Positions 13,120-43,187 of a stretch of 64,000 nt of DNA are shown here, piece by piece. Source of the DNA: a virus. Positions within the stretch are counted from its first letter, which is position 1, and the number at the start of each line of letters is the position of its first letter. The DNA is taken from positions 113,659 through 177,658 of the IMG/VR virus record IMGVR_UViG_3300046008_000291; one strand, 5' to 3'. Made by a program: the position numbers and the translations under genes. The notes below the pieces were generated by a model, which was given only the letters and a program-made list of their open reading frames with translations, was not told where the DNA came from and ran no database searches.

Positions 13120-13155
13120 TAAATACAATAACTGTTAGTAGGATTGAAATAAATA
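13120..13155 (+). promoter_or_regulatory. Putative T4-like late promoter(s), TAAATA
   Basis: GGTAAATA (TAAATA 13120-13125) and AATAAATA (13150-13155) in the 49-bp gap before a structural gene; resembles the T4 late consensus TATAAATA. Confidence 0.45.
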
Positions 13156-17523: not shown

Positions 17524-17552
17524 TTGACAACTTAATACAAATGTCTTATACT
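17524..17552 (+). promoter_or_regulatory. Sigma70-type promoter heading the modification operon
   Basis: TTGACA (17524-17529), 17-bp spacer, TATACT (17547-17552), immediately after the TAG stop of the last structural gene. Confidence 0.7.
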
Positions 17553-17599
17553 ATAGGTAAGTTATTTTGACTTACCTATTTTTATGGCTAATTACTATT

Positions 17600-17917
17600 A
17601 TGACAACAGAAATTACTCAACTAGTTGCTCAAATTAAACAAGCAACGGATTATCAAACCAACAAACGCATACTTAAAGAAAAAATACAAACGGATTTACA
17701 TGTTCCGTATAACAATGGACTCTTTAAAGTAACACCGGAACTTATAGCATTCCTATCAACTTGGACTGCTGATACTTTATATCTTGAAGATACCTACGAA
17801 AATCCTATAGAAATACAACGACTAGCATTTTTAGAATTGTGTCGGCAACACTATCAACAAGTTATGAACGAATGGCATATTCAATATGACGAAATCCGAC
17901 GTGCCCGCAAAGTCTAA
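17600..17917 (+). CDS. Hypothetical protein (~105 aa)
   Basis: ORF track 17567..17917 starts at TTG; the in-frame ATG at 17600 (MTTEITQLV) is the more plausible start. Confidence 0.6.
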   Translation: MTTEITQLVAQIKQATDYQTNKRILKEKIQTDLHVPYNNGLFKVTPELIAFLSTWTADTLYLEDTYENPIEIQRLAFLELCRQHYQQVMNEWHIQYDEIRRARKV

Positions 17918-18662
17918 AGGTGTTGTATTATTTGCTGTTAACACTGCCACAGTCGATTATGTTCGAATCGCTGAGCAGGCCGCACGTTTAATTAAACATA
18001 CTCTAAACTTACCTACTACCATTATCACAGATCCGGGCGTACCTAGTTTAAGTAACTATCGCACCGGCCATGCTGGCGGCACAGAATGGAAGAACGGTGG
18101 CAGATATCGTGCGTACGAACTTAGTCCCTATGATGAAACTATCTTACTTGACAGTGACTACCTACAGTTAGATACAAGTTTATTAACCATACTCGAAACC
18201 ACTGTCGATTATAAGTTAATGCACTACAACCAAAGCCCTCAACAGTCAATGTCGGGCAACATGGGTCAGTTAAGTTTAGATTATGTATGGGCCACTGCTA
18301 TAACATTTAAGCGTACAGATAAAACACAAATGTTATTTGATCTAGTTGGTCGTATCGAACGTAACTATGCTTACTATCAAAAACTATATCACTTAAGAGA
18401 ACGTAATTTCCGCAATGATTATGCGTTTGCCATTGCCAACAACATTATTAATGGGTACACTACTAACACTACACAAAGTATACCTTTTACCATGTTAACC
18501 TTGGATAAACTAATTAAAAACATTGAAATAACAGGCGAAAAGATGATTATACGCGAAGAAAATTCTGCACATGTCATTGCCCTGCAAAACATACACGTAA
18601 TGGATAAAGATTATTTGCTTAGTGAAAAGTTTGATCAATTGGTGGACACAGTATGCGCATAA
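17886..18662 (+). CDS. GT-A-fold glycosyltransferase-like protein (nucleotide-diphospho-sugar transferase)
   Basis: KGVVLFA N-terminal strand; SPYDETILLDSDY DxD motif. Confidence 0.6.
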   Translation: MTKSDVPAKSKGVVLFAVNTATVDYVRIAEQAARLIKHTLNLPTTIITDPGVPSLSNYRTGHAGGTEWKNGGRYRAYELSPYDETILLDSDYLQLDTSLLTILETTVDYKLMHYNQSPQQSMSGNMGQLSLDYVWATAITFKRTDKTQMLFDLVGRIERNYAYYQKLYHLRERNFRNDYAFAIANNIINGYTTNTTQSIPFTMLTLDKLIKNIEITGEKMIIREENSAHVIALQNIHVMDKDYLLSEKFDQLVDTVCA

Positions 18663-19510
18663 CACCACATCAAGCACAGCAGGGGTTTATGACCATTGCG
18701 CAGAATACAGCAGAGGTTGATTACTTACAGCTTGCTTACGTACAAGCAATGAGTATTAAACTGACCATGCCTGGCAGTTCGTACGCAGTAGCAGTTGATA
18801 AGAATACACTTGAACAGGTAACAGAACAACATCGAAAGGTGTTTGATTATGTAGTTACTATTGACAATGACCTAGCCCAAGACGAAACTTGGAAGTTATC
18901 AAATGAATGGCAGGCATTTTATCTCACACCATTCAAAGAAACAATTAAACTCGAAAGTGACATTGTATTCACTAGAAGTATTGCGCATTGGTGGACTGCT
19001 TTTAGATTAAAGAATGTTGTACTAAGCACAGGATGTAGAGATTATCAGCAAGAGTTAAGCGCATCACGAGAATACAGAAAGTTATTCGACGATAATGAAT
19101 TGCCCGATACTTACAACGGGCTAATGTATTTTAGATACAGTCGTGAAGCCACTGAATTCTTTATGTTAGCAGAACAAATATTTAAAAATTGGGCCTATCT
19201 ACGTGACAACGTATTACTTAACTGTCGCGATGATAATCCTACTACCGATGTTGTTTATGCTCTAACTGCAAAGTTACTTGGTGTAGAAGATTGCACATTG
19301 CCCAGCTTAGATTTTATTAATTTTGTACATATGAAGCCGGCAATTAACGCATGGACCAGTACACCCTGGCCTGAGTTAGTTGTATGCGAAACAGACTTAC
19401 CAATGATACGTATTGCCAACACCAATCAATATCACCCCATACACTATCATGAAAAGTCCTGGGTAACACCTGAATTAATCAAGGAGTATGAACATGAACT
19501 CTTTAAGTGA
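18653..19510 (+). CDS. GT-A-fold glycosyltransferase-like protein, paralog of 17886..18662
   Basis: QGFMTIAQN..VDYLQLAY; TPFKETIKLESD (ExD variant of DxD); RDDNPTTDVVYA. Confidence 0.55.
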   Translation: MRITPHQAQQGFMTIAQNTAEVDYLQLAYVQAMSIKLTMPGSSYAVAVDKNTLEQVTEQHRKVFDYVVTIDNDLAQDETWKLSNEWQAFYLTPFKETIKLESDIVFTRSIAHWWTAFRLKNVVLSTGCRDYQQELSASREYRKLFDDNELPDTYNGLMYFRYSREATEFFMLAEQIFKNWAYLRDNVLLNCRDDNPTTDVVYALTAKLLGVEDCTLPSLDFINFVHMKPAINAWTSTPWPELVVCETDLPMIRIANTNQYHPIHYHEKSWVTPELIKEYEHELFK

Positions 19511-19844
19511 ATTTGAAAAAGCATTGGCCATGCTCAAACCCATTGTAGAAGAAGTTAAAGAATATAGATTGCACTATGATGAACTTGGAATCATTACAAT
19601 GTGTACAATGATCAATCACCCAACGGATACTAACTATATTGTTGTTAGTCGAGATGAATATGACAACTATTTCCGTTATACAATTGTAGATAATAAGCTG
19701 AAAAAGATTGACAACAACCCTGGTTATCGTGTACAATTAGCTAGTAGTACCACTGGCTACGCCACAGTAAAGAAACATGCAGGAATACTAATAGAACCAA
19801 CTGACACCTATCAGGATATAGAATACTATGACACAAATCGTTGA
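19488..19844 (+). CDS. Hypothetical protein (118 aa)
   Basis: ORF overlapping both neighbours in the operon; no motif recognised. Confidence 0.55.
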   Translation: MNMNSLSEFEKALAMLKPIVEEVKEYRLHYDELGIITMCTMINHPTDTNYIVVSRDEYDNYFRYTIVDNKLKKIDNNPGYRVQLASSTTGYATVKKHAGILIEPTDTYQDIEYYDTNR

Positions 19845-20724
19845 TATAGCAGATTTAGCCTGCATCTATCTAAGCTACGATGAACCTAAGAAAGAAGAAT
19901 TTTGGATCAAGATTCAAAACATGGTTCCGTGGGCTAAACGTGTAGATGGGGTTAAGGGCAGTGATGCTGCCCACAAAGCCGCGGCGGCTGCCAGCGACAC
20001 CGAACGCTTTGTATTAATAGATGGCGATAACTTGCCCGATCCAGAATTCTTCAACCTGCAACTTACACTGGATGATACCAATCGAGATGTAGTATTCCGT
20101 TGGAAGGCTCGTAATCACATCAACGGACTTATGTACGGCAATGGTGGCATGAGTTGTTGGACCAAGGACTTTGTCAACAACATGCGCACACACGAAGCCA
20201 GTGATGGTGCAGATGATACAGCTATCGAGTTTTGCTTTGACCCACGCTATTGGGCAATGAATGATTGCTACAGTACAACATACCCAAATCAAAGTTCATA
20301 TCAAGCCTGGCGAGCTGGATTCCGTGAAGGTGTTAAGATGTGCTTGGATCGTGGCACAAAGCCAAGCCTTGGTGAATTTGAGCGACGTGTACACGCACGC
20401 AACTATGATCACTTGAGCATATGGCACAATGTGGGCATGGATGTAGAGAATGGTGACTGGGCTATGTATGGTGCTAAACTAGGCACATATATGACCATGA
20501 TTACGGATTGGGACTACAGAGAAGTACAGGACTTTGATGCACTGAATCGTATCTGGGAGCAAAACAAAGTATTAAATCTAGTAGAAGAATGTAACGAAAT
20601 GTCACATACATTAAGTGTAAAATTAGGATTGCCTGCTCCGCATTTTACAGCGGCGCAGAGTAGATTTTTCAAACATCACTACAAGAGCGTATTTAAGAAC
20701 AAAGGTATAATGTCGAGAGAATGA
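19828..20724 (+). CDS. GT-A-like glycosyltransferase
   Basis: IYLSYDEP..AKRVDGVKGSDAAHKAAA..RFVLIDGDN (DxD); later AWRAGFREGVK. Confidence 0.6.
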   Translation: MTQIVDIADLACIYLSYDEPKKEEFWIKIQNMVPWAKRVDGVKGSDAAHKAAAAASDTERFVLIDGDNLPDPEFFNLQLTLDDTNRDVVFRWKARNHINGLMYGNGGMSCWTKDFVNNMRTHEASDGADDTAIEFCFDPRYWAMNDCYSTTYPNQSSYQAWRAGFREGVKMCLDRGTKPSLGEFERRVHARNYDHLSIWHNVGMDVENGDWAMYGAKLGTYMTMITDWDYREVQDFDALNRIWEQNKVLNLVEECNEMSHTLSVKLGLPAPHFTAAQSRFFKHHYKSVFKNKGIMSRE

Positions 20725-21593
20725 GATTACACGATACTAATTTAGTAAAGTATTTTTCATATATCCCAGAAGTTTGGCGAACTTATCCTGTTTATCCATA
20801 TAATTTCATTGATCGAAATTCAAATACATTAGTGGTTACCATTGGTGACAGCTGGACATTTGGTGCTGATATTTGTCTAGATGATTATGCAATGTCTCAG
20901 GAAAGATTAGACAAGATGTATGGAAACATCGTTGCATCTAACTTGGGTGCCGACTTCTTAAGCCTGGGACAGAGTGGTACTTGTAATTTATATATAATTA
21001 ATAAAATAACAGAATTAGACACCCTTATTCCGCAATTGGATTATACTAATATTATAATCATATGCACATTTACCGAAGCATGTCGAACATTCGATGGACC
21101 GTTTGACAAACACAACGATTATGTCACGTGGTTTAGTAACCAAACATTTGATTCAGTTGATAAGTTTGATTCTATTATAAAATATCATAATGGACTACAA
21201 CAGGATTCAATAGTTGAATTAGCTGCAAAATATCAACACGTTAAAGTAATAGTGGGTACTAACTTTGTTGATCCTATTGGCATGAATCCAGCTATAACAA
21301 TCTTATCTAAAAGTTGGCTGCAGGTATACAGCGAACAAATAATTAATCAAGAATATCTCGGTCATTGTTATATTATGTCGCATTGGGTATTGGACAAACT
21401 GCCCGGAATCATTACTGGATTTAAACCAGATATAGATCGAACTTTATTATTGCAGTGGATGTGTGGATTAACTGAATCAGCAATGACACGAAAACAATTA
21501 GTATCAGACTCCTGTTATTTTAGAGGAATCAATCATCCACTTGCTGAAGGTCATCGAGTATGGGCTGATTATCTATTAGAGCAACTGCAATGA
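20721..21593 (+). CDS. SGNH-superfamily acylhydrolase/acyltransferase
   Basis: VTIGDSWTFG (block I GDS), LGQSGTCN, C-terminal NHPLAEGH; ATGA overlap with the upstream gene. Confidence 0.65.
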   Translation: MRLHDTNLVKYFSYIPEVWRTYPVYPYNFIDRNSNTLVVTIGDSWTFGADICLDDYAMSQERLDKMYGNIVASNLGADFLSLGQSGTCNLYIINKITELDTLIPQLDYTNIIIICTFTEACRTFDGPFDKHNDYVTWFSNQTFDSVDKFDSIIKYHNGLQQDSIVELAAKYQHVKVIVGTNFVDPIGMNPAITILSKSWLQVYSEQIINQEYLGHCYIMSHWVLDKLPGIITGFKPDIDRTLLLQWMCGLTESAMTRKQLVSDSCYFRGINHPLAEGHRVWADYLLEQLQ

Positions 21594-22555
21594 ATACGTA
21601 TACACTACAATTAGAAAATGATCAGTTGCACAATATTACTCCATTTATTAAATTCTGCCGTGATCACGAACATACAGATATTAAGTTAATTGTAAATCAA
21701 GAATCACATTGCTTGCAATTTTGTGGAGTGTATGCAATACTCGATTTATTTACATTTACCTCAGTTACTATTGTCACTGCTAATGCTGTTGAATGCCACG
21801 ATAGATATAGAATTGTTATTAATTGGGCATATTGGTTAAAACAATCTAGAAAATTTAAAACATCAAATGACTATACGTGGAATCAAACAAAAATATTTGG
21901 ATGTTTTTACGGAAGACCTAGTGCACCTCGGGTTGGCATTGCAGGCCATTTAGCGCAACATTATAATGACAAAAGTTTATTACAATTAAGATTTAATACA
22001 GACAGTGAAGATACACGCAAGTTGGTTGATATACAAAAACTATTTGCCTGGGATATAACTGGCGCAGCTAAATTAGATCAGTTGGTGCAAAATAAAGAAC
22101 AATATTTTCAACCTATACCTGCATACGAGTACACCACTGGTAGTTACGATTACAATAGTGATCTTAATAACCTATACAAAAATATTTTTGTAGATATTGT
22201 AGTCGAAGCTACAACTTTAGGTAATACATTTTATCCTACTGAAAAGATTGCACGTGCAATATTGTGTAGAAAACCTTTTATTGTCATGGCATCTAAATTT
22301 TATCTTGGCTATTTAAAACAAATAGGATTTAAAACGTTTGATGAATATTGGCCCGAGCTATATGATAACGCAGATGGTAAAGCACGATATCTTGCTATCT
22401 TAGAATTAATTGATCGTCTGGCAAAATTATCAACAGCAGAGTTGGTAGAGTTAAATATTAAAATGCAACACACTATAGAATATAATCGTCAGTTATTAAT
22501 AGCTCAACAATATAACAAGCAGGTTACAAGAATCATTCCGCATTATGAAAACTAA
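21590..22555 (+). CDS. Glycosyltransferase-like protein (GT-B; GT10/exostosin-like C-terminal half)
   Basis: DIVVEAT..FYPTEKIARAILCRKPFI..LKQIGFKTFD motif. Confidence 0.5.
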   Translation: MNTYTLQLENDQLHNITPFIKFCRDHEHTDIKLIVNQESHCLQFCGVYAILDLFTFTSVTIVTANAVECHDRYRIVINWAYWLKQSRKFKTSNDYTWNQTKIFGCFYGRPSAPRVGIAGHLAQHYNDKSLLQLRFNTDSEDTRKLVDIQKLFAWDITGAAKLDQLVQNKEQYFQPIPAYEYTTGSYDYNSDLNNLYKNIFVDIVVEATTLGNTFYPTEKIARAILCRKPFIVMASKFYLGYLKQIGFKTFDEYWPELYDNADGKARYLAILELIDRLAKLSTAELVELNIKMQHTIEYNRQLLIAQQYNKQVTRIIPHYEN

Positions 22556-23939
22556 AAGCGACTTTATGTCAACGGCAGAAGAAATGAAGGACAAGTTAGG
22601 TCCTGCACTCTGCTTGGCTAAATGGCAACAGGTAAGTCTACACTTGCCTACAGGACTTACTAATAGTTGCTATCATCCACCGTTACATGAAATTGATAGT
22701 GCACCGCTAGTGTTTAACCCGGGTGCCTTACACAATACAGCACATAAAAAACAACAGCGTAAACTTATGTTAGAGCAACAACGTCCAACAGAATGTAGCT
22801 ACTGTTGGAGTGCAGAAGACAATAAGCAACTAAGTGATAGACACTATCGTAGTGGTGAGCCATGGGCAGCTGAACACTACGAAACTATAGTAAATGCACC
22901 TTGGGATCAAGACGTTGTACCAAGTTATGTTGAAGTAAACTTCAGTCACGGCTGTAACCTAGCCTGTAGCTATTGCAGTCCACAGTATAGTACAGAGTGG
23001 GGCAAAGATATTGACCGATGGGGAGCATATCCTACTAGCACTCCACACAATGCACCTGAACATTTTGAAGGCAGACGTAAGCCTATTCCTGTACGTGCGG
23101 AAAATCCCTATGTAGAAGCATTTTGGCGTTGGTGGCCAGAACTGTACGGCAGTTTAAAACACTTCCGTATGACGGGTGGCGAACCCCTGATGGATAAGAA
23201 TACGCATCGTGTGTTTGATTACATACTTGCCCTGCCTAAGAGTGATCTACACGTTGACGTAACCAGTAACTTTAGTGTGGATAGTAATCTGTTTAAGAAA
23301 TACATAGATAAAGTTAAGCAACTATGTGAAGGTGAACGCATTGAACATTTTATGCAGTATGTTAGCCTAGACACAGGCAACAGCGAGCATGCAGAATATA
23401 TTCGCGACGGTCTACATTATTTTAGATGTATGTCTTATGCGCATCAATTTCTAACTGACATTCCTTATCGCAATAGTCTAACGTTTATTATCACAATGAA
23501 TAATTTAAACATACTAGGATTGCGACAATTACTTGAATCGATATTAGAGATGCGTAAAAAATACAGTTCGACCTATCAACGTGTATGGTTTGATACACCG
23601 TTGTTACGCAGTCCAACATATCAAAGTTTACAAATATTACCAGCAAGTTATGTTCGCATATTAGAAGATGTTGTTACCTTTATGCGAGCAAATCAGGCAG
23701 ACGAAACAGCTGATAACTTCGAAGGCTTTAAAGATTATGAAATACAACGTATGGAACGTAATGTTGAATGGATGAAACAAGGTTGCGAACTTGCCGCAGA
23801 CTATGTTACAATACAAAGAGCAGACTTTTATAAGTTCTTCAATGAATACGATAAACGCAGAGGATTAATATTTTTGGAAACGTTCCCACAAATGAAAGAG
23901 TTTTGGCAGGAGTGCAAATATCATGCCGAAAATAGCTAA
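22545..23939 (+). CDS. Radical SAM protein with N-terminal twitch-like Fe-S domain (1)
   Basis: CLAKW..SCYHP..CSYC, then core CNLACSYC (CX3CX2C) and MTGGEP. Confidence 0.85.
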   Translation: MKTKSDFMSTAEEMKDKLGPALCLAKWQQVSLHLPTGLTNSCYHPPLHEIDSAPLVFNPGALHNTAHKKQQRKLMLEQQRPTECSYCWSAEDNKQLSDRHYRSGEPWAAEHYETIVNAPWDQDVVPSYVEVNFSHGCNLACSYCSPQYSTEWGKDIDRWGAYPTSTPHNAPEHFEGRRKPIPVRAENPYVEAFWRWWPELYGSLKHFRMTGGEPLMDKNTHRVFDYILALPKSDLHVDVTSNFSVDSNLFKKYIDKVKQLCEGERIEHFMQYVSLDTGNSEHAEYIRDGLHYFRCMSYAHQFLTDIPYRNSLTFIITMNNLNILGLRQLLESILEMRKKYSSTYQRVWFDTPLLRSPTYQSLQILPASYVRILEDVVTFMRANQADETADNFEGFKDYEIQRMERNVEWMKQGCELAADYVTIQRADFYKFFNEYDKRRGLIFLETFPQMKEFWQECKYHAENS

Positions 23940-25299
23940 CGAAACAGATTTAGAATATAAGCGCAGAGTAATTGACATTAAGTCAGAATCATTCTGCGCG
24001 GCTAAATGGTATAACGCTACTATATGGTTAGGGTCAGGACAGACTACCAGCTGTCATCACCCATTGCCGCATGCTATTGACCTAGAAGCAATTAAAACTA
24101 ATCCCAGTGCTATCCATAACACTCCGCAAAAGAAATTAGAGCGTAAACAGATGCAGGTAGGTGATCGTCCTAGCGGATGCGAATACTGCTGGAAGATTGA
24201 AGACATGTATAAAGATCCTAAGTATGATGGGGTTGATGTACCAACTCCTATTAGTGATCGTGTGTACAAAACTGTAATTTATAACGATGAGGATTTAAAC
24301 TATGCATACAATTTACCTTCGGATCAAGATGTTAACCTCCGGACTTTGGAAATCGCCTTTGACCGCACTTGTCAGTTTGCTTGTAGCTACTGTAACCCTG
24401 CATTTAGCACTACTTGGGTTAAAGACATTCGGAATAACGGTGCCTACACCGATTTGGTGTCGGATGGACGTAACCACTTTACTCATACTCATGATAGCAA
24501 TCAATTGTTTAAGCTCGATGAAGTTAATCCTTATGTCGAAGCGTTCTTCAAATGGTGGGAAACAGACCTGCACAAGACGTTAAAAGAACTGCGCATCACA
24601 GGTGGCGAACCGTTAATGTCAGGATACACCTGGCGTCTAATAGAATGGTTTCAAAAGAACAAAGGACAAAGTACTACACGTCTTGCTATCAATAGTAATT
24701 TAGGATTTGAGAAAGATAAATTAGAGAGGTTATTAGATGCTACACAAGGTATCGAATTGGATTTGTACACTAGCAATGAATCGTGGGGCCGTCATGCAAT
24801 GTATATACGTGATGGCTTGGATTGGGATCAATGGGTTAGCAATGTACAGTATCTATTGGATAGCAAGAAACTGCGAGGCCTACATGTTATGTGTACCATC
24901 AATGCTCTATGCTTACTAAGCCTTACTGATTTGTTATGGATGATAGTAAAACTTAAACGCACTTATGGCAAGGATGCAATTAACTTTAGTCTAAACATCT
25001 TACGATTCCCTAGTTTCCAAAGTCCGTTGATCTTGCCTATGGAGATACGTGAACAAATGGCCGAAGACCTACAACAATTTGGCGAAGCGGCACACAGTGA
25101 ACTACACGAATCTGAATATAATCAATTGACTAGATTGATTGAGTACTTACAGACTGTAGACAGCCCACACAGTGGAGCACTATCACGTGAGATTTTACAA
25201 CGTGACTTTAAGAACTTTTATCAGCAATACGACCAGCGGCGTGGTCTAGACTTTAAATATACATTTACACAATTAGCGGACTGGTACGACACACTATGA
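23923..25299 (+). CDS. Radical SAM protein with N-terminal twitch-like domain (2)
   Basis: CAAKW..SCHHP..CEYC; core CQFACSYC; ITGGEP. Confidence 0.85.
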   Translation: MPKIANETDLEYKRRVIDIKSESFCAAKWYNATIWLGSGQTTSCHHPLPHAIDLEAIKTNPSAIHNTPQKKLERKQMQVGDRPSGCEYCWKIEDMYKDPKYDGVDVPTPISDRVYKTVIYNDEDLNYAYNLPSDQDVNLRTLEIAFDRTCQFACSYCNPAFSTTWVKDIRNNGAYTDLVSDGRNHFTHTHDSNQLFKLDEVNPYVEAFFKWWETDLHKTLKELRITGGEPLMSGYTWRLIEWFQKNKGQSTTRLAINSNLGFEKDKLERLLDATQGIELDLYTSNESWGRHAMYIRDGLDWDQWVSNVQYLLDSKKLRGLHVMCTINALCLLSLTDLLWMIVKLKRTYGKDAINFSLNILRFPSFQSPLILPMEIREQMAEDLQQFGEAAHSELHESEYNQLTRLIEYLQTVDSPHSGALSREILQRDFKNFYQQYDQRRGLDFKYTFTQLADWYDTL

Positions 25300-32101: not shown

Positions 32102-32177
32102 CAGAATTAAATTAGAAATAACTTATCGTAAAAAATTAAAAGCATTACGTAAGCGTGATCCATTTATCTATAAGTAA
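32076..32177 (+). CDS. Small basic peptide, 33 aa (MNWLKTLYNRIKLEITYRKKLKALRKRDPFIYK)
   Basis: Not in the ORF track. GGAG 7 nt upstream of the ATG; its TAA overlaps the next ATG (TAATG); it fills the gap between two SGNH genes. Confidence 0.55.
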   Translation: MNWLKTLYNRIKLEITYRKKLKALRKRDPFIYK

Positions 32178-35102: not shown

Positions 35103-37503
35103 TGTGTTCTACACGGGCCCAAAGCCTGGCTTATTTCCATTTGAACTGCCAGCTGATACACTAGCGGAAGCTGCTAGTTTAAGTCGTACTAAGTTTTTTT
35201 GGTTCGTCGATGGACAAAATGATTACACAGGATTTGATTTTAATTTTCAGGCAGTGCCTTGGGAAGAACATCAAATACACACATGGCCAAATCAATGGCA
35301 GGTTGACGGAGGTGTATATTTTGCTAACAAATATACTATACAAGATCGTATACATAATTACCATTCAGACACCTATACACATCGACTACCCAACTTAGAT
35401 TATTGGGATTATCGTGACTGTGACCCTGCTAGTGTAGATCAACGGTGGGCACCAGATCCATTGGATCCTCCTTACATCTATCAGTTTCCTGTTAAGTGGG
35501 GGCGCGAGCAAGTAGATGGACCACGGTATTGCGTACCAGGTGCCGCAGAAGTAAAATACCTATACGACTTTACAGCAGAGTTTAATCCACAGTTAGAATT
35601 ATGGACTGTACCAGAAGAAATTAATGCTGAAGATATTGATTTTACCTGGCGACCTGATCCTGACCATCCTCCTTACATCTATCACTTTAGTTCAGAGTTC
35701 CAAGTGAGTTCTGGATTAACCTATACAGTGCCTGGTGCAGTCGATGTCAAGTTTGTGGACATGATGCCCACTAAGACGGGCAATGCTATACAGGTCTTGG
35801 ACATATTCTTTATTGATAAAAGCAATGCCAGCGCGGCTGTGCGTTATGAAATGTTAGTAGATGAATATCCGCATGCACAAAAGATACGCTATGCCAATTC
35901 AATGATGGATACTATTGCTCGATGTGTTACACGCAGTAAGACCAGTAAGTTTTGGATAGTCAGTAGTGAAAACATTTACACAGACTTTAACTTTAGTTGG
36001 CACGCTGAACCTTGGCAAGGCCACATGATGCATGTGTTTGGATCACAGCATCAAAAGTGGAGCGATACCTACTTAATTAATCGCAGTGAATTTACTCGCT
36101 GTAGGGCGTGGGCTCGGAATCTAGAAGAGTTTCCTAATCTGCATTTTGTCACAGATCAGCCTGTGTATATTCCTGATGACCTGCATGACATATACTTTGT
36201 TGATCACGGTAATGACAATGATCAACTTGAACAACTGCAAAAGAAACACCCCGATATCAAATCAACTCGTTATGTTGATAACTACCTCGATACCTTTAAG
36301 CGTATTATGTCAACTGCTTCAACAGAACATGTATGGATAATCAGTAGCCTATGTGATTATACACGCTTTGACTTTAGTTGGCAACCGGAACCCTGGCAGA
36401 AAGAAATGATACATGTGTTTCCTAGTGCTAACCAAGCTCGTGGTGATACATTCTATATACATGTTGAATCATTTAAACAACAGATGGTTGAACTTGCTCT
36501 GTTAGATTGGTTCAACGTTATTAACTACTGTGAAGAACAGCGTGTTCCAAGACTACCTATGCCCGTGCATACTTACCAAGGAGATAATTTAATCACTGCG
36601 GTTAGCGAACACGAGTTTAAACATCCATATACTTGGTTTTGTAAACGAGATCGTGGTATAGTGTATAACCCTAGCATTTGGTACGCAAAAGATAAGAAAA
36701 TCGTCTCGTTTACGCCCGATAATAGCTATGTTTTGGCACCGAGAGAGGCCAAAAACTATATCAGTACACAAGTATACTATTATCCATATATTGATAAAAT
36801 ACCGACGTTTTATAGCCCTCAACAGGATATTATTTTTATCAGTTATGACGAAGTTGAAGCCGATGCTAACTGGGCCAAGCTAGGTAGTAAATATCCTAAT
36901 GCTAAAAGACTGCATGGTGTAGAGGGAATGGAAAATGCTCTACGTGCGGCTGCTGAATTAAGCGAAACTGAATGGTACTACGCTGTATTTGCTAAAACAG
37001 AAATACATCCTGGGTTTGAATTTGATTTTAGTCCTGATTACTTTCAATTGCCCAAGCATTATATATTCTATGCACACAATGAAGCCAACGGATTAGAGTA
37101 TGGTTATGCAGGAGTTATATTATACAATGTTAACCTTGTTAAGACTGTGACTGAATTTGGTATTGATTATACTATGAGTGCACCGCATGCTGTTATACCT
37201 AAACTAAGTGCTATTGCACATATAGGCGCAACTCCGTATCAAGCCTGGCGCAGTGCATTTCGTGAATGTGCAAAACTTGCACAGATACATGAAGAAACTG
37301 GCTGTATTGAAACTAAACATAGACTACACACATGGACAACCACAGCCCGTGGGCCTAATGCTGAATGGATATTAAAAGGTGCCAACGATGGTGTTGCCTT
37401 TTATTCAGCCAATAAAAATTCCCATCAAACACTTAAACAAGCATTTAGATGGGAATGGTTAGCTAGGCAGTTTGCGGAATTGTATCCCGAAGTTGATCGA
37501 TAA
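35095..37503 (+). CDS. 802-aa multi-module protein with four GT-A-like repeats (related to 19828..20724)
   Basis: Modules begin FDVFY, LDIFFID, HDIYFVD and QDIIFISYDE. Each is followed by an (S/T)xTxx(F/V/Y)W/Y strand and an F.F.(W/F)...PW/DY segment; C-terminal AWRSAFRECAK. Confidence 0.55.
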   Translation: MFDVFYTGPKPGLFPFELPADTLAEAASLSRTKFFWFVDGQNDYTGFDFNFQAVPWEEHQIHTWPNQWQVDGGVYFANKYTIQDRIHNYHSDTYTHRLPNLDYWDYRDCDPASVDQRWAPDPLDPPYIYQFPVKWGREQVDGPRYCVPGAAEVKYLYDFTAEFNPQLELWTVPEEINAEDIDFTWRPDPDHPPYIYHFSSEFQVSSGLTYTVPGAVDVKFVDMMPTKTGNAIQVLDIFFIDKSNASAAVRYEMLVDEYPHAQKIRYANSMMDTIARCVTRSKTSKFWIVSSENIYTDFNFSWHAEPWQGHMMHVFGSQHQKWSDTYLINRSEFTRCRAWARNLEEFPNLHFVTDQPVYIPDDLHDIYFVDHGNDNDQLEQLQKKHPDIKSTRYVDNYLDTFKRIMSTASTEHVWIISSLCDYTRFDFSWQPEPWQKEMIHVFPSANQARGDTFYIHVESFKQQMVELALLDWFNVINYCEEQRVPRLPMPVHTYQGDNLITAVSEHEFKHPYTWFCKRDRGIVYNPSIWYAKDKKIVSFTPDNSYVLAPREAKNYISTQVYYYPYIDKIPTFYSPQQDIIFISYDEVEADANWAKLGSKYPNAKRLHGVEGMENALRAAAELSETEWYYAVFAKTEIHPGFEFDFSPDYFQLPKHYIFYAHNEANGLEYGYAGVILYNVNLVKTVTEFGIDYTMSAPHAVIPKLSAIAHIGATPYQAWRSAFRECAKLAQIHEETGCIETKHRLHTWTTTARGPNAEWILKGANDGVAFYSANKNSHQTLKQAFRWEWLARQFAELYPEVDR
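35465..35684 (+). repeat. Intragenic 201-bp-period duplication (PDP..PPYIY.F..VPGA..VK)
   Basis: Exact 19-bp direct repeat ATCCTCCTTACATCTATCA at 35465-35483 and 35666-35684. Confidence 0.8.
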
Positions 37504-38449
37504 AATCCTGCGCTAATAACCAATCAAGATATGCAGGAATGCCCTGTTCGATATCCCATACAGGTGTATAGTCTAGCATGTGTTTAATCTTATCGCTGTT
37601 AAGTGTATCGCGATTAGGATAAAACGCATCATGTGGTTTAATAATAATTTCACCACCTAATCTTTGTTGTACAAGTTCAGCGGCTTCTAAAATAGTGCGC
37701 CCACGGCCACGTGTACAGTTAAAGATTTGATTAACTGCTGCCGGATTCAATGCGGCTTCTGTAAAATACCCTGCAACATCTTCTACAAAACTAAAATCTA
37801 GTCGATTATCTGGACCCTGTACTGTGATAGCACCATTGCGCAATGAACCTGCAGCCATTTGACTTATAACACGTACTACCATATCGCGTGTACCATACAA
37901 AGCACTTGGTCGCATAATAACATATTCTAAGTCATGATCCTGTGCCCAGATCTTAACCATACGCTCACCTTGCAATTTGTAACTACCGTATAGGGTTAAT
38001 GGATCACAGTCAGCAGTTTCATCCGGTGCGGCAGTTTTAAATTCACCGTAGACCATACTACTAGACGCAAATACAAGTCGTTTAACGTGATGTTGTGTGC
38101 AATTTAATAATATGTTAGCAGTAGCACTAACCATGTTATTGGCGGCATCAACAGGATTACGGTGCACCATCTTAGCATTGGGATATGTTGCCACATGAAT
38201 AACAACATCTGGTTTAAAATCATTAAACACACCATTAATAAACAACTGATCTTCGATGCGTCCTTTGAATACTTGGTCGGCATCAGCTAGTGCAATACGC
38301 TGTGCCAGTACTGGGTTATATTCCCAGTCTGGAAATGTATAGTATTGATGATAGCAGTCCACTACACCGATAGTATGTCCTAATGCTTTGAGTTTACTAC
38401 TGGTATGACTACCAATAAAGCCGTGTCCGCCTAAAATTAATATTTTCAT
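37463..38449 (-). CDS. NAD-dependent sugar epimerase/dehydratase (extended SDR) 2
   Basis: GGHGFIG, ASSSMVYGEF, YGSYK (YxxxK), RPSALYG, DFSFVED. Confidence 0.9.
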   Translation of the reverse strand: MKILILGGHGFIGSHTSSKLKALGHTIGVVDCYHQYYTFPDWEYNPVLAQRIALADADQVFKGRIEDQLFINGVFNDFKPDVVIHVATYPNAKMVHRNPVDAANNMVSATANILLNCTQHHVKRLVFASSSMVYGEFKTAAPDETADCDPLTLYGSYKLQGERMVKIWAQDHDLEYVIMRPSALYGTRDMVVRVISQMAAGSLRNGAITVQGPDNRLDFSFVEDVAGYFTEAALNPAAVNQIFNCTRGRGRTILEAAELVQQRLGGEIIIKPHDAFYPNRDTLNSDKIKHMLDYTPVWDIEQGIPAYLDWLLAQDFIDQLRDTIPQTA

Positions 38450-39504
38450 TTGAATGTCCTTAATGCATTAGTGATAGTGTTAATTTCTTCATCGGTTAAT
38501 GTGTGTTGACAGGGTATGCCTAGACTACGTTCACTTAACCATGTGCTATTATGTAATACAACATCACACAGATATAATTCTTCTTCGTGTACCAGTGGTT
38601 GGTAATACACTTGACTATCAACTCCGTGGGCTGTTAAATGATCTCTTAATTGCTGTCTAACTTCTAAATCTGCACATCGAATAATAAATTTATGCCAGGT
38701 ATGTTGACCTCTAGTAGTGGGAGCAATTAGTCTATCACTGGTAATGTTTATTATAAACTCTTCTGCTATGGATTGTCTACGGTCACGCCATTGTTGATGA
38801 TGATCGACACAACACAACACCTGTGCCGCTTCTAGGCTACTCATCATACTATTAGCACCAGCAGTAATAGCCACATCGCTATTGATGTTCTTACCATGTG
38901 TGCGCCACTTACGTGCCCACACAGCAAATTCATCATCATCTGTTAGTATTGCACCGCCACTGCCAAATGCTGGAATTGTTTTTGTTGGACTAAAGCTAAC
39001 TGCACTGGCTATACCCTGGGCAAGACTACTACGACCTTGTCTATCAAACGTTTCTATGCTTTGTGCAGCATCCATAACAAACGGAATGTCTAGGTCAGCT
39101 ATCTTATCATAATCTTGTGCTAGTCCAAACAGGTCAACACCTACAATACCATTTAATCCGCCAATGTCATTTAGTTTTACATGATAGTTAGCATCCACAT
39201 CAAGGAATATAGGAACTAGTCCGGCTCGTTCGATGGCATTAACTGTGGCAATAAATGTATAGCTAGGTACACCTATAAGAGATTCTTCAGGGAAATGGTA
39301 CTCTAAAATGCAACGTAAGGCGTCTGTACAGCTAGCAACTGTGATAGCATGCTTGCGACCACTATAATCGCATAACCACTGCTCTAACGCTAAAGTGCTA
39401 GGACCTTTTTGAGCCCATCCTTGACTGGCAACTAGATCCATACCGGCAAGTGCGGCATGTCTGATCTCAGACCAGATACGATCTAATTGAAATAGCTTGA
39501 TCAT
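38446..39504 (-). CDS. DegT/DnrJ/EryC1/StrS PLP sugar aminotransferase 2
   Basis: VASCTDAL, PSYTFIAT, DAAQS, SFSPTK (PLP lysine), GSGGAILT. Confidence 0.9.
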   Translation of the reverse strand: MIKLFQLDRIWSEIRHAALAGMDLVASQGWAQKGPSTLALEQWLCDYSGRKHAITVASCTDALRCILEYHFPEESLIGVPSYTFIATVNAIERAGLVPIFLDVDANYHVKLNDIGGLNGIVGVDLFGLAQDYDKIADLDIPFVMDAAQSIETFDRQGRSSLAQGIASAVSFSPTKTIPAFGSGGAILTDDDEFAVWARKWRTHGKNINSDVAITAGANSMMSSLEAAQVLCCVDHHQQWRDRRQSIAEEFIINITSDRLIAPTTRGQHTWHKFIIRCADLEVRQQLRDHLTAHGVDSQVYYQPLVHEEELYLCDVVLHNSTWLSERSLGIPCQHTLTDEEINTITNALRTFK

Positions 39505-40142
39505 TTAATACAACGATACCGAACTTCGAAAGATTCTGCATAGGTACTACCCAACATCTGTCCACGTAGTGCAGATTGGCCTTTGATATTGTGCAGTAAT
39601 GTATCACTAAAGTAGCTATCATAACATTGGATAGCTTGAATTTTTGTATCGATGTATGGAGCAATGTCTACAAATATATTAGGTACGAATTCCTTGTTAC
39701 GATTAGTATAAGGTCCGCCTTCCATGCACCATAGTTCGCCTTGATAACGACGTAGACTACTGTTGACGATATGGAAAGTATTTACATGATCCTGATGATG
39801 ATCGCCCGGGCTGTGTGTGATGACTAAATCATACTCTTTGCCCTGCATGTAGGAATCAAGTTGTTCTACAGTGGCACTATCCCATTCCAATACAGGGCGA
39901 CCAGTTGCATCTAATCGATTATTGAGAAAGGTAAACTTAGTACCAATGACCCGTTCACTTGCTGAATATTCAGCAACCATTTTATCCTTGTCACGCCACA
40001 CGCTTGGACGCGGCACATTGTCATTACGTGCTACTACAATATCAAATTCTGCACCTTGATCACGGAATTTTAATAACGTACCCAAGCAACCTAATTCAAT
40101 ATCATCTGGATGTGCGCCCACTGCTAAAATACGTTTATACAT
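39501..40142 (-). CDS. PIG-L/LmbE-family de-N-acetylase
   Basis: AVGAHPDDIELG and HHQDH zinc motifs; C-terminal AESF. Confidence 0.88.
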   Translation of the reverse strand: MYKRILAVGAHPDDIELGCLGTLLKFRDQGAEFDIVVARNDNVPRPSVWRDKDKMVAEYSASERVIGTKFTFLNNRLDATGRPVLEWDSATVEQLDSYMQGKEYDLVITHSPGDHHQDHVNTFHIVNSSLRRYQGELWCMEGGPYTNRNKEFVPNIFVDIAPYIDTKIQAIQCYDSYFSDTLLHNIKGQSALRGQMLGSTYAESFEVRYRCIK

Positions 40143-40998
40143 TTAATTTCCTTGACATTAATTCTACCGTTTGTGTTACTCTTAACATATGATCCATATC
40201 TGCTCTTGGCTTATCACCACTATCAACACAGCGCATAAAGTCTTGTATCTGCGCTTCTAGTGGCGACTGCTTGGGATTAAGCTGCACCACCGAAGTCTTT
40301 GCTTCTTTAAGATTGCCCTCGGCATACCCGCCTTCAGTAATATGCAACGCTGTGTCATCTAACCATATCTGGCATTCATCACAGGTAATAACAAATTCTC
40401 TAACTTTAGTAGGCCACTGCCATCCTAATATTATTGTAGCACCTTTATTAGGATATGTCAATCCAAATTGTGCATAATCATATTGCGGACTATTATTTAA
40501 ATGAGTACCGTTCCCGTCAATAGTCAGCGGTAAACTATTGGTTAACTTATCGATTACACTGATATCATGCGGAGCCAAGTGCCAGGCTAGATCTATATTA
40601 GTCTGTAGTCTACCCCAATTTAGTCTGCGACTTTCTACGTGACGCACATTTAATGTTGACACAAGTTTTAACATATATTCTATGTTTGGTTGGAATAAAA
40701 GTATATGACCAGCTTGGTAGACTAGGTCCTGTGATCTAGCTAGCTCATTTAATTCTTGTTGTTCCGCTACGCTCATACAAGTAGGTTTCTCGCACAATAC
40801 GTGAATGCCCTGTTCAAGATACCATTTGGTCATTGTGTAATGTTGATCGGCTGGTGTGGCAATAATAACAGCATCTAATGTTTTATTCTGCCAACTGTCG
40901 CCGTTCTTAATATCCATGATGACAATAATAGCCTGATTACTAGCACTATTAACAATTTTGCTACCCCAATAACCTGCACCTGCTATGCCTAGTTTCAT
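40135..40998 (-). CDS. Gfo/Idh/MocA-family oxidoreductase
   Basis: GAGYWG, IATPADQH, HVLCEKP, HLAPHD. Confidence 0.88.
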   Translation of the reverse strand: MKLGIAGAGYWGSKIVNSASNQAIIVIMDIKNGDSWQNKTLDAVIIATPADQHYTMTKWYLEQGIHVLCEKPTCMSVAEQQELNELARSQDLVYQAGHILLFQPNIEYMLKLVSTLNVRHVESRRLNWGRLQTNIDLAWHLAPHDISVIDKLTNSLPLTIDGNGTHLNNSPQYDYAQFGLTYPNKGATIILGWQWPTKVREFVITCDECQIWLDDTALHITEGGYAEGNLKEAKTSVVQLNPKQSPLEAQIQDFMRCVDSGDKPRADMDHMLRVTQTVELMSRKLNV

Positions 40999-42050
40999 TT
41001 GAATTCTCTTTTAACAGTAGTGGCAATTAATTCAACTTCACTATCAGTTAGAAACTGATGTGTAGGTATGGCTAAATTCATTCGACTATAATATTCTGTA
41101 TTAGGCAACTGAGCATTGATATTATATGCAGGCTGTTTGTAGGCAAGATTGCTGTAATATCTACGTGATTCGATATCTTTTGCTTTAAGTGCGGCTTCGA
41201 TTTGTTCTGACTGTTCACTTAATACAATATATTGATGCCGTACATTGTACCCTTGCGCAAATTGCGGAATAACCTCAAACAAGTTTTTAAATTGTTCGTC
41301 GTAGTATGCAGATATTTCTCTGCGACGACTGTTCCATTGATCTAAATGTGGTAATTTGTTATCAAGTAATTCTGCTTGTATACTGTCCAATCGACTATTA
41401 TATCCTACATGACTGACATTGAATTTACTTTCTTGTCCGTGATTGCGTAGCTTTTTAATAGTAGCGGCATAGTCTGCATTGTTAGTAGTAACTGCACCAC
41501 CATCACCCAAGCAACCTAAATTCTTAGTAGGATAGAAACTAAAGCAGGTTAGATCAGTAACACTGCCAACCATGCGATCTTTATATCTGGCACCAGTGGC
41601 CTGTGCCGCATCGCTGATAGTAGCTACTGGAAACTTAACCTTATCCCAATCACATGGCTGACCAAACAGATCCACACCGATTATGGCCTTGGTACGACTA
41701 TCTACAGCAGCCAAGGCATCATCCATGTTCATGGTTAGATATTGATCAACATCAACTAGGCGTATCTCTGCACCTAAGTTAGCAATAACTTCGTATGAGC
41801 TTAACCAAGTAAGTCCTACAGTAATAACATTGTCGCCGGGCTTAACACCTACTGCATCTAAACTTAATCGTAGTGCGTCTGTGCAATTGCCTACGGCAAT
41901 AGCATGTTCTGCTTGTGTATAAGCGGCAAAGTTGCTTTCAAAGTCGCGCACTGCTTTGCCTAAAATAAAGTCCTGTCTAGTTAATGTGCCTGCACATAAT
42001 TTATCTAAACTATGTTCGCGCTCATAATGAAAATCACTTAATTTAATCAT
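40995..42050 (-). CDS. DegT/DnrJ/EryC1/StrS PLP sugar aminotransferase 1
   Basis: VGNCTDAL, DAAQATG, SFYPTKNLGCLGDGG, GYNSRLD. Confidence 0.92.
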   Translation of the reverse strand: MIKLSDFHYEREHSLDKLCAGTLTRQDFILGKAVRDFESNFAAYTQAEHAIAVGNCTDALRLSLDAVGVKPGDNVITVGLTWLSSYEVIANLGAEIRLVDVDQYLTMNMDDALAAVDSRTKAIIGVDLFGQPCDWDKVKFPVATISDAAQATGARYKDRMVGSVTDLTCFSFYPTKNLGCLGDGGAVTTNNADYAATIKKLRNHGQESKFNVSHVGYNSRLDSIQAELLDNKLPHLDQWNSRRREISAYYDEQFKNLFEVIPQFAQGYNVRHQYIVLSEQSEQIEAALKAKDIESRRYYSNLAYKQPAYNINAQLPNTEYYSRMNLAIPTHQFLTDSEVELIATTVKREFK

Positions 42051-43009
42051 ATTTTATAATACTCAGAATTAATAAACCAGTTATAATATTTGTAAAAACC
42101 TTGTTCTACATCTACTGTAGGTGTGTAGCCTAAATCTTGTTGAGCACGGCTAATATCTAATTGACCGCGTTTAGGAAAACTCAAATCTCGTGGACCAACT
42201 ACTAATTGCCCTTGACCGGCAATTTTAATAGCAAGTTCGGCAGCATCTTTAAGTGTCCATTGACGTTGCTCACTGCGTGTGATATTATAGATGTTACCAT
42301 TGGCCTTATCAAGTGTTGCGGCCAATACAATACCTTGAGCAGTATCTTCTACATAGGTAAAGTCCAGAACTTCATCTGGACCATGCACCTTAAGAGTCTG
42401 ACCTCGCATGGCAGCCAGCATGAACTTACTGACCACACGGTCTTCGACATCCCACTCACCATATACAGCACTAGGACGAATAATCACATGCTCAAAGCAT
42501 CCACGTCGACTATAGTCTTCTACAAGTTTCTCGCCCATGTATTTCATAATACCATATTGGCCCTGCGGAGTACAATGAGCTGATTCTGTAACATCTGAGG
42601 TAAAGTCACCGTATACCATACTAGAACTTATATAGACAAACTTTTTAATATTATGTTCTTTGCTTAATTCTAGTAGGTTGATCAACCCAGTAGTCATAAC
42701 TTCACTGGCTAGTGCAGGATCTTGTTCTACTACTTTTTGTCTAGGAAAGCTGGCCATATGAATAATCACATCTGGCTGTTCAGTAGCAAACAAGCTGTTT
42801 AATCGTGTTTGGTCACGTATATCAATTTTATACGTTTCGCTGGTGTAGCGAGTGCGTCTGTGCGCAGCCAAGTATATAATCTCTGCAGTAGGGATAAAAC
42901 CGTAGTTAGTAAATGTGTCTACTACAACACATTCATGACCTAGTGCTTCTAAGAAACGTGTAACATTGTGCCCAATAAAGCCAGCACCACCTGTGATAAG
43001 ATATTTCAT
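42047..43009 (-). CDS. NAD-dependent sugar epimerase/dehydratase (extended SDR) 1
   Basis: GGAGFIG, ISSSMVYGDF, YGIMK, RPSAVYG, DFTYVED. Confidence 0.9.
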   Translation of the reverse strand: MKYLITGGAGFIGHNVTRFLEALGHECVVVDTFTNYGFIPTAEIIYLAAHRRTRYTSETYKIDIRDQTRLNSLFATEQPDVIIHMASFPRQKVVEQDPALASEVMTTGLINLLELSKEHNIKKFVYISSSMVYGDFTSDVTESAHCTPQGQYGIMKYMGEKLVEDYSRRGCFEHVIIRPSAVYGEWDVEDRVVSKFMLAAMRGQTLKVHGPDEVLDFTYVEDTAQGIVLAATLDKANGNIYNITRSEQRQWTLKDAAELAIKIAGQGQLVVGPRDLSFPKRGQLDISRAQQDLGYTPTVDVEQGFYKYYNWFINSEYYKI

Positions 43010-43167
43010 CTACCGCGGCCCGCTGATTTTTTAGTAGGCTTGTTACTAGCAACTTTACCTTTAGGTGTGCCCTTGCCAGTATCAACGGTTAAGTTGGTAT
43101 GAGTGATGTTTTGTTCTGCTTGTTTCTTTTCTAATGCCTGCTTGACTAAATCTTTAAGTGATGCCAT
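43006..43167 (-). CDS. Small basic protein, 53 aa (MASLKDLVKQALEKK...KKSAGRGR)
   Basis: Not in the ORF track; AAGGA RBS; its TGA overlaps the SDR start (ATGA). Confidence 0.6.
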   Translation of the reverse strand: MASLKDLVKQALEKKQAEQNITHTNLTVDTGKGTPKGKVASNKPTKKSAGRGR

Positions 43168-43187
43168 TGTTCTATTCCTTAGATAGT

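Follow-up and report, generated by a model that had tools for sequence, protein, structure and literature searches.

Described sugar islands and the cluster of a lake phage

Islands of glycosyltransferase (GT) and radical S-adenosylmethionine (rSAM) genes beside fibre genes have been described in aquatic T4-like phages (PMC7029224, PMC7824862, PMC5332604). They include the host recognition cluster of pelagimyophages and cyanomyophages (Zaragoza-Solas et al. 2020, PMC7029224) and the lipopolysaccharide ('LPS') cluster of P-SSM2 (reviewed in PMC7824862). Herein, a gene cluster at positions 17,524 to 43,167 of a viral DNA stretch of 64,000 nucleotides (IMG/VR record IMGVR_UViG_3300046008_000291, positions 113,659 to 177,658) is compared with these islands. 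The whole stretch, called the window, makes up the final 64 kb of one viral contig, which is 177,658 bp long and has a CheckV completeness of about 49%. Related contigs reach up to 337 kb with direct terminal repeats, and the virus is therefore a jumbo phage; the source is an uncultured giant T4-like lake phage. A megablast search of 20 kb against isolate phages gave zero matches.

Similar to the host recognition cluster and the P-SSM2 cluster, the present locus is a large island beside fibre genes, with GT8-type GTs, nucleoside diphosphate (NDP)-sugar enzymes and rSAM cassettes. Carbamoyltransferase clusters have likewise been noted in cyanophages. The published reports are descriptive and term the islands hypervariable, whereas the core order found here is fixed across hundreds of contigs. 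A GT-A family without annotation, an array of N-twitch rSAM proteins (family NF033640, N_Twi_rSAM) and an invariant micropeptide are undescribed in the published islands, and neither the fixed architecture nor the N-twitch array nor the micropeptide was found described in a literature search. The original prediction, made from the letters of the window, had stated that no characterised phage pathway of such breadth was known. This statement needs narrowing, as islands beside fibre genes had already been described, though not characterised (PMC7029224, PMC7824862).

Virus-encoded soluble GT-A enzymes by structural genes are also represented by A64R of Chlorella virus PBCV-1 (PDB 2p6w) and by the capsid and tail glycosylation of mycobacteriophages. 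These systems have no known rSAM, carbamoyl or amino-sugar tailoring, and in contrast to them virion glycosylation is putative in the present phage group.

The cluster is interpreted as a soluble, conserved glycan-building and -editing pathway of jumbo T4-like aquatic phages, with a polypeptide made by the phage as the possible acceptor. This reading is preferred but held tentatively. Within it, glycan biosynthesis and tailoring are well supported by the enzyme families and their conservation. Three Ser/Thr-rich fibre-like proteins are encoded upstream of the cluster, and those directly upstream are the first candidate acceptors, especially the following one:

16582..17523, + strand: fibre-like Ser/Thr/Gly-rich protein of 313 aa, S+T 27%, no Cys

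This is the last late-promoted structural gene ahead of the cluster, and it has a counterpart in 46 of 47 fully flanked related loci.

A polypeptide acceptor is favoured by the solubility of the enzymes, no transmembrane (TM) helix having been found among the 25 cluster proteins. It is also favoured by the position behind the fibre genes, which is fixed in two very different phage lineages, and by the fold of the core GT-A enzyme, whose best match is the Chlorella-virus enzyme that glycosylates its own capsid protein. Priming transferases of the WbaP and WecA types and the flippase Wzx (PF02397, PF00953, PF01943) were not found in genomes G000, G001, G013 (complete), G014 and G015, while the control genomes were positive. 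A self-contained surface-polysaccharide route appears to be absent. The original prediction had left three destinations for a phage-made glycan, namely virion proteins, DNA or the host surface; the glycan block stands, DNA is now disfavoured, and the host surface is left without such a self-contained route.

Conservation and gene content of the cluster

Conservation as a block had been named beforehand as a test of the prediction, and it was verified. Fourteen IMG/VR loci, found with the double rSAM gene, share the + operon, and a scan for the GT-A family returned at least 597 IMG/VR viral contigs. Gene order and presence were counted in the best 80 loci of these contigs, of which 47 have full 10-kb flanks. 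In 47/47 fully flanked loci, a giant open reading frame (ORF), the fibre genes, 16582, a small ORF, two GT8-like genes, the GT-A gene and four to five rSAM genes follow each other on one strand. The complete 337-kb relative G013 keeps the cluster layout, including 30183, a 35095-like protein and the convergent genes for a DegT aminotransferase and a short-chain dehydrogenase/reductase (SDR); its micropeptide lies directly before the carbamoyltransferase. The five rSAM orthologues, the GT-A enzyme and the carbamoyltransferase show about 50-65% identity, and the GT8 pair and the fibres go down to 31-43%.

A partial layout, in two related modules, was found in the cultured Ralstonia jumbo phage RsoM2USA. 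In module 1 (gp355-348), fibre-like gp355 is followed by homologues of 17567 (gp354), of both GT8-like genes and of the GT-A gene, then by an N-twitch rSAM gene and a second GT-A-like gene. This module follows the virion-product genes gp361, gp359 and gp356, whose products were found in virions by mass spectrometry (PMC8504454). Module 2, elsewhere in the genome, consists of the rSAM gene gp202, the micropeptide and the carbamoyltransferase gene gp199.

As predicted, the genes form two convergent, tightly coupled operons. The + operon spans 17567/17600-37503 and the - operon 43009-37463. Neighbouring genes overlap by 1-35 nt at 17/18 junctions of the former and at 5/5 junctions of the latter. 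The operons meet at 37463-37503, where their final genes, lying on opposite strands, share 41 nt and no terminator is present between them. The first genes of the + operon and its last gene are as follows:

17600..17917, + strand: small helical protein of ~105 aa, first cluster gene, 47/47 loci; homologue RsoM2USA gp354; no Pfam or PHROG match
17886..18662, + strand: GT8-like glycosyltransferase a, DxD motif present as DSD at residue 89, 80/80 loci
18653..19510, + strand: GT8-like glycosyltransferase b, a paralogue with ESD replacing DxD, 80/80 loci
19488..19844, + strand: small ORF of 118 aa, variable, 13/47 loci, no family match
19828..20724, + strand: core GT-A-fold glycosyltransferase, DGD at residue 65, D65 and D67 invariant
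20721..21593, + strand: SGNH-like protein, GDSWTFG motif, 3/80 related loci, no Pfam match
21590..22555, + strand: candidate GT10-like (fucosyltransferase-type) ORF, lead only
35095..37503, + strand: multi-domain protein of 802 aa, with an internal repeat of ~125 aa present twice and a GT-A-like domain at the C-terminus

For seven ORFs near the 5' end and for four further ones, Pfam and PHROG gave no match. Five GT-like ORFs had been proposed, of which the two GT8-like enzymes and the GT-A enzyme are retained. A family profile of 17886 and 18653 (12 sequences) matched glycogenin-1, a GT8 enzyme, with E 5e-6 over 105 aligned positions through the DxD motif, and the second Asp of this motif is invariant. 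No Pfam family, including Glyco_transf_8, was found for either protein at E <= 0.01, and they are therefore termed GT8-like rather than members of GT8. Glycogenin glycosylates a protein tyrosine.

The AlphaFold2 model of 19828 (pLDDT 82.5) gave PBCV-1 A64R as the top Foldseek match (E 7e-5, probability 1.0), followed by many GT2 enzymes; the glycocin S-glycosyltransferases SunS and ThuS were also among the matches. The profile of this protein had no real match among PDB sequences. The family lacks a Pfam model and returned at least 8000 matches in a protein search (database clustered at 90% identity); the GT-A enzyme is 58-70% identical across relatives. The other two GT-like ORFs are less secure. 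For 21590, a GT10-like activity is possible: the nearest Atlas clusters having a Pfam family carry PF00852 (score 0.80), and the invariant positions include E218, K219, R222, P229 and F230 in a TEK...P-F stretch, while the family profile had no match in PDB. The C-terminus of 35095 aligns with the 19828 family (hhalign 99%, E 4e-18), with DGD aligned to AKT, so that it is without DxD. A 35095-type protein is present in all relatives.

The rSAM genes form an array:

22545..23939, + strand: N-twitch rSAM, long subtype, NF033640 273.5 bits, 62% median identity, 47/47 loci
23923..25299, + strand: N-twitch rSAM, long subtype, NF033640 286 bits, 50% identical to RsoM2USA gp202
25296..27854, + strand: fusion of two N-twitch rSAM modules, NF033640 715 bits in two stretches
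27841..28926, + strand: N-twitch rSAM, variable array member, NF033640 199.8 bits, ~25% identity to counterparts elsewhere
28919..30208, + strand: N-twitch rSAM, NF033640 285.7 bits, 58% median identity

The prediction of six N-twitch modules was verified: six are encoded in five ORFs, each with 197-393 bits and above the curated NF033640 cut-off of 170 bits. The present members of this family are distinguished by their arrangement as a tandem array, including the two-module fusion, within a phage sugar pathway. The modules fused in 25296..27854 are separate ORFs in the complete relative G013. In a seven-module alignment, C25, C44, C86 and C89, the CxxxCxxC cysteines C150, C154 and C157, and G227-G228-x-P230 (GGEP) are invariant. 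The rSAM profile matched PDB entries in the common core only (BlsE, viperin, SkfB and similar), and the reaction therefore cannot be inferred from these matches. Secondary NCBIfam matches were to mycofactocin, YhhB cyclophane and DynA maturases (E 1e-10 to 1e-3). Analogues for radical SAM chemistry at C-H bonds are the BtrN-type and anSME-type enzymes, and the most economical guess by this analogy is an oxidation or epimerisation at sugar C-H bonds.

A bacterial scan with a single N-twitch protein found two metagenome-assembled genomes (MAGs). The Bacteriovoracaceae MAG G006 has ten NF033640 paralogues above the cut-off on many contigs (L037-L042), mostly beside housekeeping genes, and their surroundings are not a classical O-antigen context. 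At its locus L038, a 731-aa carbamoyltransferase, a GDSL protein, an N-twitch rSAM and a HAD hydrolase occur together, which supports a functional link among the carbamoyltransferase, GDSL and N-twitch rSAM families. In the phage itself, a further N_Twi_rSAM gene (256.8 bits) lies 12-15 kb before the window start (genome C1:98350-101625, - strand; L028:4351-7626). Beside it is a weak Sulfotransfer_3-like ORF (E 2e-5, below cut-off), and the pair, as an insertion, separates the genes of the gp46-like and gp47-like recombination nucleases.

The array is followed by these genes:

30183..31283, + strand: conserved 366-aa protein, AlphaFold2 pLDDT 84.5, invariant His, Cys, Glu and Asp positions
31283..32101, + strand: SGNH-like protein, GDSFTYG motif
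32076..32177, + strand: micro-ORF of 33 aa, basic amphipathic helix with near-invariant RKRDPFIYK at its end
32177..32827, + strand: SGNH-like protein, GDSFTYG motif
32793..34292, + strand: NodU/CmcH/TobZ-family O-carbamoyltransferase (PF02543 and PF16861)
34289..34690, + strand: small P-loop kinase of 133 aa, partial APS_kinase match of 29.9 bits, phrog_10255 'kinase' E 2e-32
34680..35102, + strand: dCMP/cytidine deaminase, PF00383 E 3e-22

The 366-aa protein, the micro-ORF and the deaminase had been missed in the original list of parts. The model of the 366-aa protein is a cyclophilin-like beta-barrel with a helical insert; a Foldseek search found nothing, and VIA gave Z ~9 to cyclophilins, barely above background. 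The three proteins named SGNH in the prediction are SGNH-like by motif: GDS (G7, D8, S9), N62 and H253 are invariant in 20721, 31283 and 32177, while Pfam gave no match. Their family matches are weak, both to SGNH esterases in PDB (profile E 0.15-0.9, block I only) and to a Pfam-positive GDSL protein (hhalign 38%, E 3e-4).

The predicted carbamoyltransferase was found with both Pfam domains above their cut-offs, namely Carbam_trans_N (E 1e-39, 136.7 bits against 24) and Carbam_trans_C (E 3e-47, 160.7 bits against 27). With 157 bits against a cut-off of 1000 for the NodU equivalog NF041651, it scores as a member of the wider carbamoyltransferase family and not as NodU itself. Its copies are 63-64% identical in G013-G017, the G013 copy lying inside the cluster, and the identity to RsoM2USA gp199 is 47%.

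The kinase, the deaminase and the thymidylate synthase (TS) ThyA are judged by their distribution not to be core parts of the cluster. No copy of the kinase was found within 10 kb in the 80 loci, and the deaminase is absent from the cluster in relatives and probably represents ordinary dTMP supply. The kinase had been called APS-kinase-like; its assignment as a P-loop kinase holds by PHROG, and the APS_kinase match is partial. The accompanying hint of sulfation has this weak kinase match for its only basis in the cluster, and sulfation dependent on 3'-phosphoadenosine 5'-phosphosulfate was set aside, as it rests on the partial match together with the weak sulfotransferase-like ORF elsewhere in the genome.

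The micro-ORF fills the sole gap of the + operon (32101-32177), and its stop overlaps the start of the next gene. It was found in 30 loci including distant relatives, and it is unannotated in the isolate RsoM2USA. Its final 17 residues hardly vary, yet they are encoded by freely differing codons (six codons at Leu24, four at Pro29). The codon pattern therefore indicates a translated peptide under strong selection at the protein level. This finding raises the alternative that the 33-residue peptide is itself the substrate or primer: its C-terminal FIYK would be cross-linked or processed by the rSAM enzymes, and glycosylation by the GTs and a finishing step by the carbamoyltransferase would give a virus-encoded product, similar to a cofactor or to a ribosomally synthesised and post-translationally modified peptide (RiPP). 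In RsoM2USA the micro-ORF adjoins the rSAM gp202 and the carbamoyltransferase gp199; rSAM enzymes with auxiliary clusters are typical peptide maturases, in line with the secondary matches to RiPP maturases, and SunS and ThuS appear among the GT-A fold matches. The invariance of the whole peptide resembles that of cofactor precursors, such as the peptides MftA of mycofactocin and PqqA of pyrroloquinoline quinone. With mycofactocin (MftA, the rSAM-SPASM protein MftC and the GT2 enzyme MftF), the locus shares a small conserved peptide with an aromatic end, an auxiliary-cluster rSAM and a GT-A enzyme. However, equivalents of MftB or a RiPP recognition element (RRE), of MftD and of MftE were not seen here, the twitch domain is N-terminal and the peptide is unrelated, so that this is a resemblance only. 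The similarity to RiPP maturases is also limited to the generic rSAM core. An RRE or PqqD-like domain and a peptidase did not turn up in Pfam, NCBIfam and PHROG scans of the cluster ORFs, no search aimed at them having been made. The micro-ORF adjoins the carbamoyltransferase and lies far from the GT genes, the bacterial locus of carbamoyltransferase, GDSL protein and N-twitch rSAM has no micropeptide, and the peptide could equally be a partner subunit or, its stop overlapping the downstream start, a translational leader. A peptide-derived product is accordingly rated as quite unlikely.

The - operon carries the predicted amino-sugar genes, all six of which were confirmed by Pfam. In order along the window they are:

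37463..38449, - strand: extended SDR 2 of the NDP-sugar epimerase/oxidoreductase type, PF01370 E 5e-38, SSSMVYGE, no TDE
38446..39504, - strand: DegT-type sugar aminotransferase 2, PF01041 E 9e-56
39501..40142, - strand: PIG-L family de-N-acetylase, PF02585 E 3e-14, BshB1-like 62 bits
40135..40998, - strand: GFO/IDH/MocA oxidoreductase (UDP-GlcNAc 3-dehydrogenase-like), PF01408, NF040723 66.9 bits, below cut-off
40995..42050, - strand: DegT-type sugar aminotransferase 1, PF01041 E 1e-88
42047..43009, - strand: extended SDR 1, PF01370 E 5e-45, SSSMVYGD

The closest types are PseC-type 4-aminotransferases for DegT 1 (best match PseC, TIGR03588, 190 bits against a cut-off of 423), UDP-GlcNAc (uridine diphosphate N-acetylglucosamine) 3-dehydrogenases for the GFO protein and BshB-type deacetylases for PIG-L, all far below the equivalog cut-offs. 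The RmlB-type 4,6-dehydratase test TIGR01181 gave 122 bits against a cut-off of 365. In 4,6-dehydratases, STDEVYG carries the catalytic Thr-Asp-Glu before YxxxK. In both SDRs this stretch is replaced by SSSMVYG(D/E), and they are therefore assigned to the epimerase/oxidoreductase type and not to the 4,6-dehydratases. SDR 1 is 58-79% identical in G001-G004 and G013. The content of the operon differs between relatives: all six genes are found in G002, an SDR and a DegT alone in G001 and G004, and an added GFO gene in G003. By this comparison, SDR and DegT appear as the sole conserved part of the operon.

Similar to WbpB/WbpE and GnnA/GnnB, a GFO-family dehydrogenase and a DegT aminotransferase are adjacent, together with SDRs. 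The difference is that the matches lie far below the equivalog cut-offs and that PIG-L, the second DegT and the second SDR suggest a more aminated sugar. For the operon product, a sugar derived from UDP-GlcNAc and bearing two or three amino groups can reasonably be proposed. The cluster has no nucleotidyltransferase, and host NDP-sugars are therefore the likely starting point. An aminoglycoside-like free small molecule was set aside, since neither an inosose synthase nor a cyclitol enzyme turned up in the ORF annotation. At the start of the operon, an ORF of 54 codons at 43006-43170 (- strand), with an ATGA overlap, occupies the space between 43188-43484 and the first SDR gene; relative G002 leaves no room for it, and its conservation may be lacking.

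The gene content suggests the following order of steps. The - operon would turn a host NDP-sugar into one or more NDP-amino-sugars, with SDR and DegT as the conserved minimum; in this phage, the added GFO dehydrogenase, second DegT, PIG-L deacetylase and second SDR would yield a sugar carrying two or three amino groups. Sugars would then be moved onto a cytoplasmic acceptor by the two GT8-like enzymes and the GT-A enzyme. Once attached, they would be modified by the five conserved N-twitch rSAM orthologues with the one variable copy, by the carbamoyltransferase and by the SGNH-like proteins; the chemistry would comprise reactions at C-H bonds (such as oxidation, epimerisation or dehydration), O-carbamoylation and the editing of esters. 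The pathway would be transcribed from its own sigma-70-type promoter.

The glycan acceptor and the expression of the cluster

The signals that bear on expression begin in front of the first cluster gene:

17524-17552, + strand: sigma-70-type promoter TTGACA-N17-TATACT, directly after the stop of the 16582 gene
17553-17579, + strand: 12-bp hairpin with a T-run, following the promoter

The hairpin probably terminates late read-through. TTGACA-N17-TA(T/C)ACT/TACTAT precedes the first cluster gene in loci L001, L006, L008 and L009, the last two being diverged relatives. The T4 late-promoter octamer TATAAATA has 1 occurrence in the 64-kb window against 10.45 expected by chance. The heptamer ATAAATA is located at 13149, 15222, 16518 and 16545, just ahead of genes 13161, 15249 and 16582; none was found within the cluster, and the last ones precede the final fibre gene. 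The - operon continues from ThyA, which is itself behind a perfect sigma-70 consensus. Both operons look early rather than late, because sigma-70-type promoters are present and the late-type ATAAATA is confined to the fibre genes.

An early-type promoter fits an exclusion function, and this leads to the alternative that the enzymes alter an envelope glycan of the infected host, namely LPS core, O-antigen or capsule, and in this way keep competing phages from superinfecting the cell. Such a role has been proposed for the host recognition cluster (PMC7029224) and the P-SSM2 'LPS' cluster (PMC7824862) and is the usual explanation of GT islands in the literature. GT8 enzymes are typical of LPS core synthesis, the sugar operon varies among close relatives as O-antigen loci do, and the phage could still add sugars to lipid-linked intermediates of the host. 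However, the 25 products include no TM protein, and the priming phosphoglycosyltransferase and the flippase are missing from five genomes, one of them complete. The near-invariant core, about 50-65% identical in very many phages, is unlike diversifying serotype-conversion genes. Furthermore, the invariant cytoplasmic micropeptide and the five conserved rSAM orthologues are without precedent in O-antigen modification. Modification of the host envelope is considered unlikely on balance.

A phage-made polypeptide thus stays the preferred acceptor, and several points weigh against it. By its sequence motifs the cluster is not late-promoted: a conserved sigma-70-type promoter separates it from the late fibre genes, and co-expression with virion proteins is therefore only putative. 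The divergence of the first GT8-like enzyme tracks that of the 16582 protein (rho 0.58; partial r 0.58, p 2e-6), compared with 0.36 and 0.38 for its own flanking genes, but the values were computed with a single reference and related loci, and this weak co-variation is therefore a hint only. The Foldseek TM-scores behind the GT-A match of 19828 are low (0.3-0.4), and the NF033640 family carries no assigned reaction. Virion glycosylation is plausible but putative. GT8 enzymes also build LPS cores. Lastly, the host recognition cluster of T4-like phages is hyperplastic (PMC7029224), and the place beside the fibre genes could simply be due to this.

Flanking genes and the biology of large aquatic phages

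The original prediction placed the cluster beside the virion genes, which holds for its upstream side. On the same strand, virion structural proteins and a gp5-like baseplate hub/lysozyme are encoded upstream, together with a baseplate wedge subunit (phrog_10646, 1018 bits). The largest gene lies directly before the fibre genes:

2-13111 in the window (full ORF at genome C1:113255-126769), + strand: giant ORF of 4504 aa

Its Pfam matches (FG-GAP, CBM_5_12) are weak and below threshold, and one segment resembles RsoM2USA gp361, a 2540-aa ORF. The downstream side, on the minus strand, carries genes of nucleotide metabolism and replication instead (thymidylate synthase, HNH endonuclease, ATPase, exonuclease and a QueE-like rSAM). 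The QueE-like gene at 58792-59667 (- strand; phrog_2076, E 3e-53) may be an orphan or belong to a 7-deazaguanine pathway; no homologue of tRNA-guanine transglycosylase (TGT) or DpdA was found on this partial contig.

These downstream genes bear on the alternative that the cluster hypermodifies phage DNA, for example as glycosylated or carbamoylated 5-hydroxymethyl-pyrimidines, like the glucosyl-hydroxymethylcytosine of T4 or the product of the 5-hydroxymethylcytosine (5hmC) carbamoyltransferase. Carbamoylation of 5hmC has been shown for phage carbamoyltransferases of the same Pfam family (Yang et al. 2021, PMC8670742), and their genes co-occur with Asp177 TS homologues, dCMP deaminases and MazG (PMC8670742). 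The present window has the same carbamoyltransferase Pfam domains with a dCMP deaminase and a TS homologue nearby; the three genes lie within 10 kb, which is the signature of modified-cytosine contigs (PMC8670742). The early-type promoter is also in line with this reading, and RsoM2USA has a second TS homologue of the Thr147/Asp177 type, dCMP-hydroxymethylase-like. In contrast to the 5hmC system, the TS encoded here has Cys146-His147 (PPCH) and Asn177 (PFNIASY), those of a canonical dUMP enzyme, and it scores above the ThyA equivalog cut-off. G000 has a single TS homologue, and so does G001, a relative of 219 kb. No TS-family gene is present in G013 (complete) or in G014 (92% complete), both of which carry the GT8 genes, the GT-A gene, the rSAM array and the carbamoyltransferase. 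The deaminase, the kinase and ThyA lie outside the conserved cluster, TGT and DpdA were not found on the partial contig, and in the lake phages the cluster has no link to the Asp177-type enzyme of RsoM2USA. Given the canonical TS residues and the complete relative without a TS-family gene, DNA modification is regarded as very improbable and was set aside.

In RsoM2USA, the second and divergent TS homologue is located at MG752970.1 7739-8398 (L044), its Thr147/Asp177 being the signature of dCMP hydroxymethylases/methylases. By this signature, RsoM2USA DNA may carry a modified cytosine. A modified cytosine is not reported in the excerpts of the published RsoM2USA description (PMC8504454).

Few unexplained gene sets of large aquatic phages are as widespread as this block. 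Solving the cluster would give a first reaction for NF033640, define a new GT-A family and explain the invariant micropeptide. Since RsoM2USA is in culture and carries a partial homologue, the question of the acceptor can be tested directly. The answer would settle whether these phages decorate their own particles, the host or a small molecule, which matters for host range and for competition among phages in lakes and oceans.

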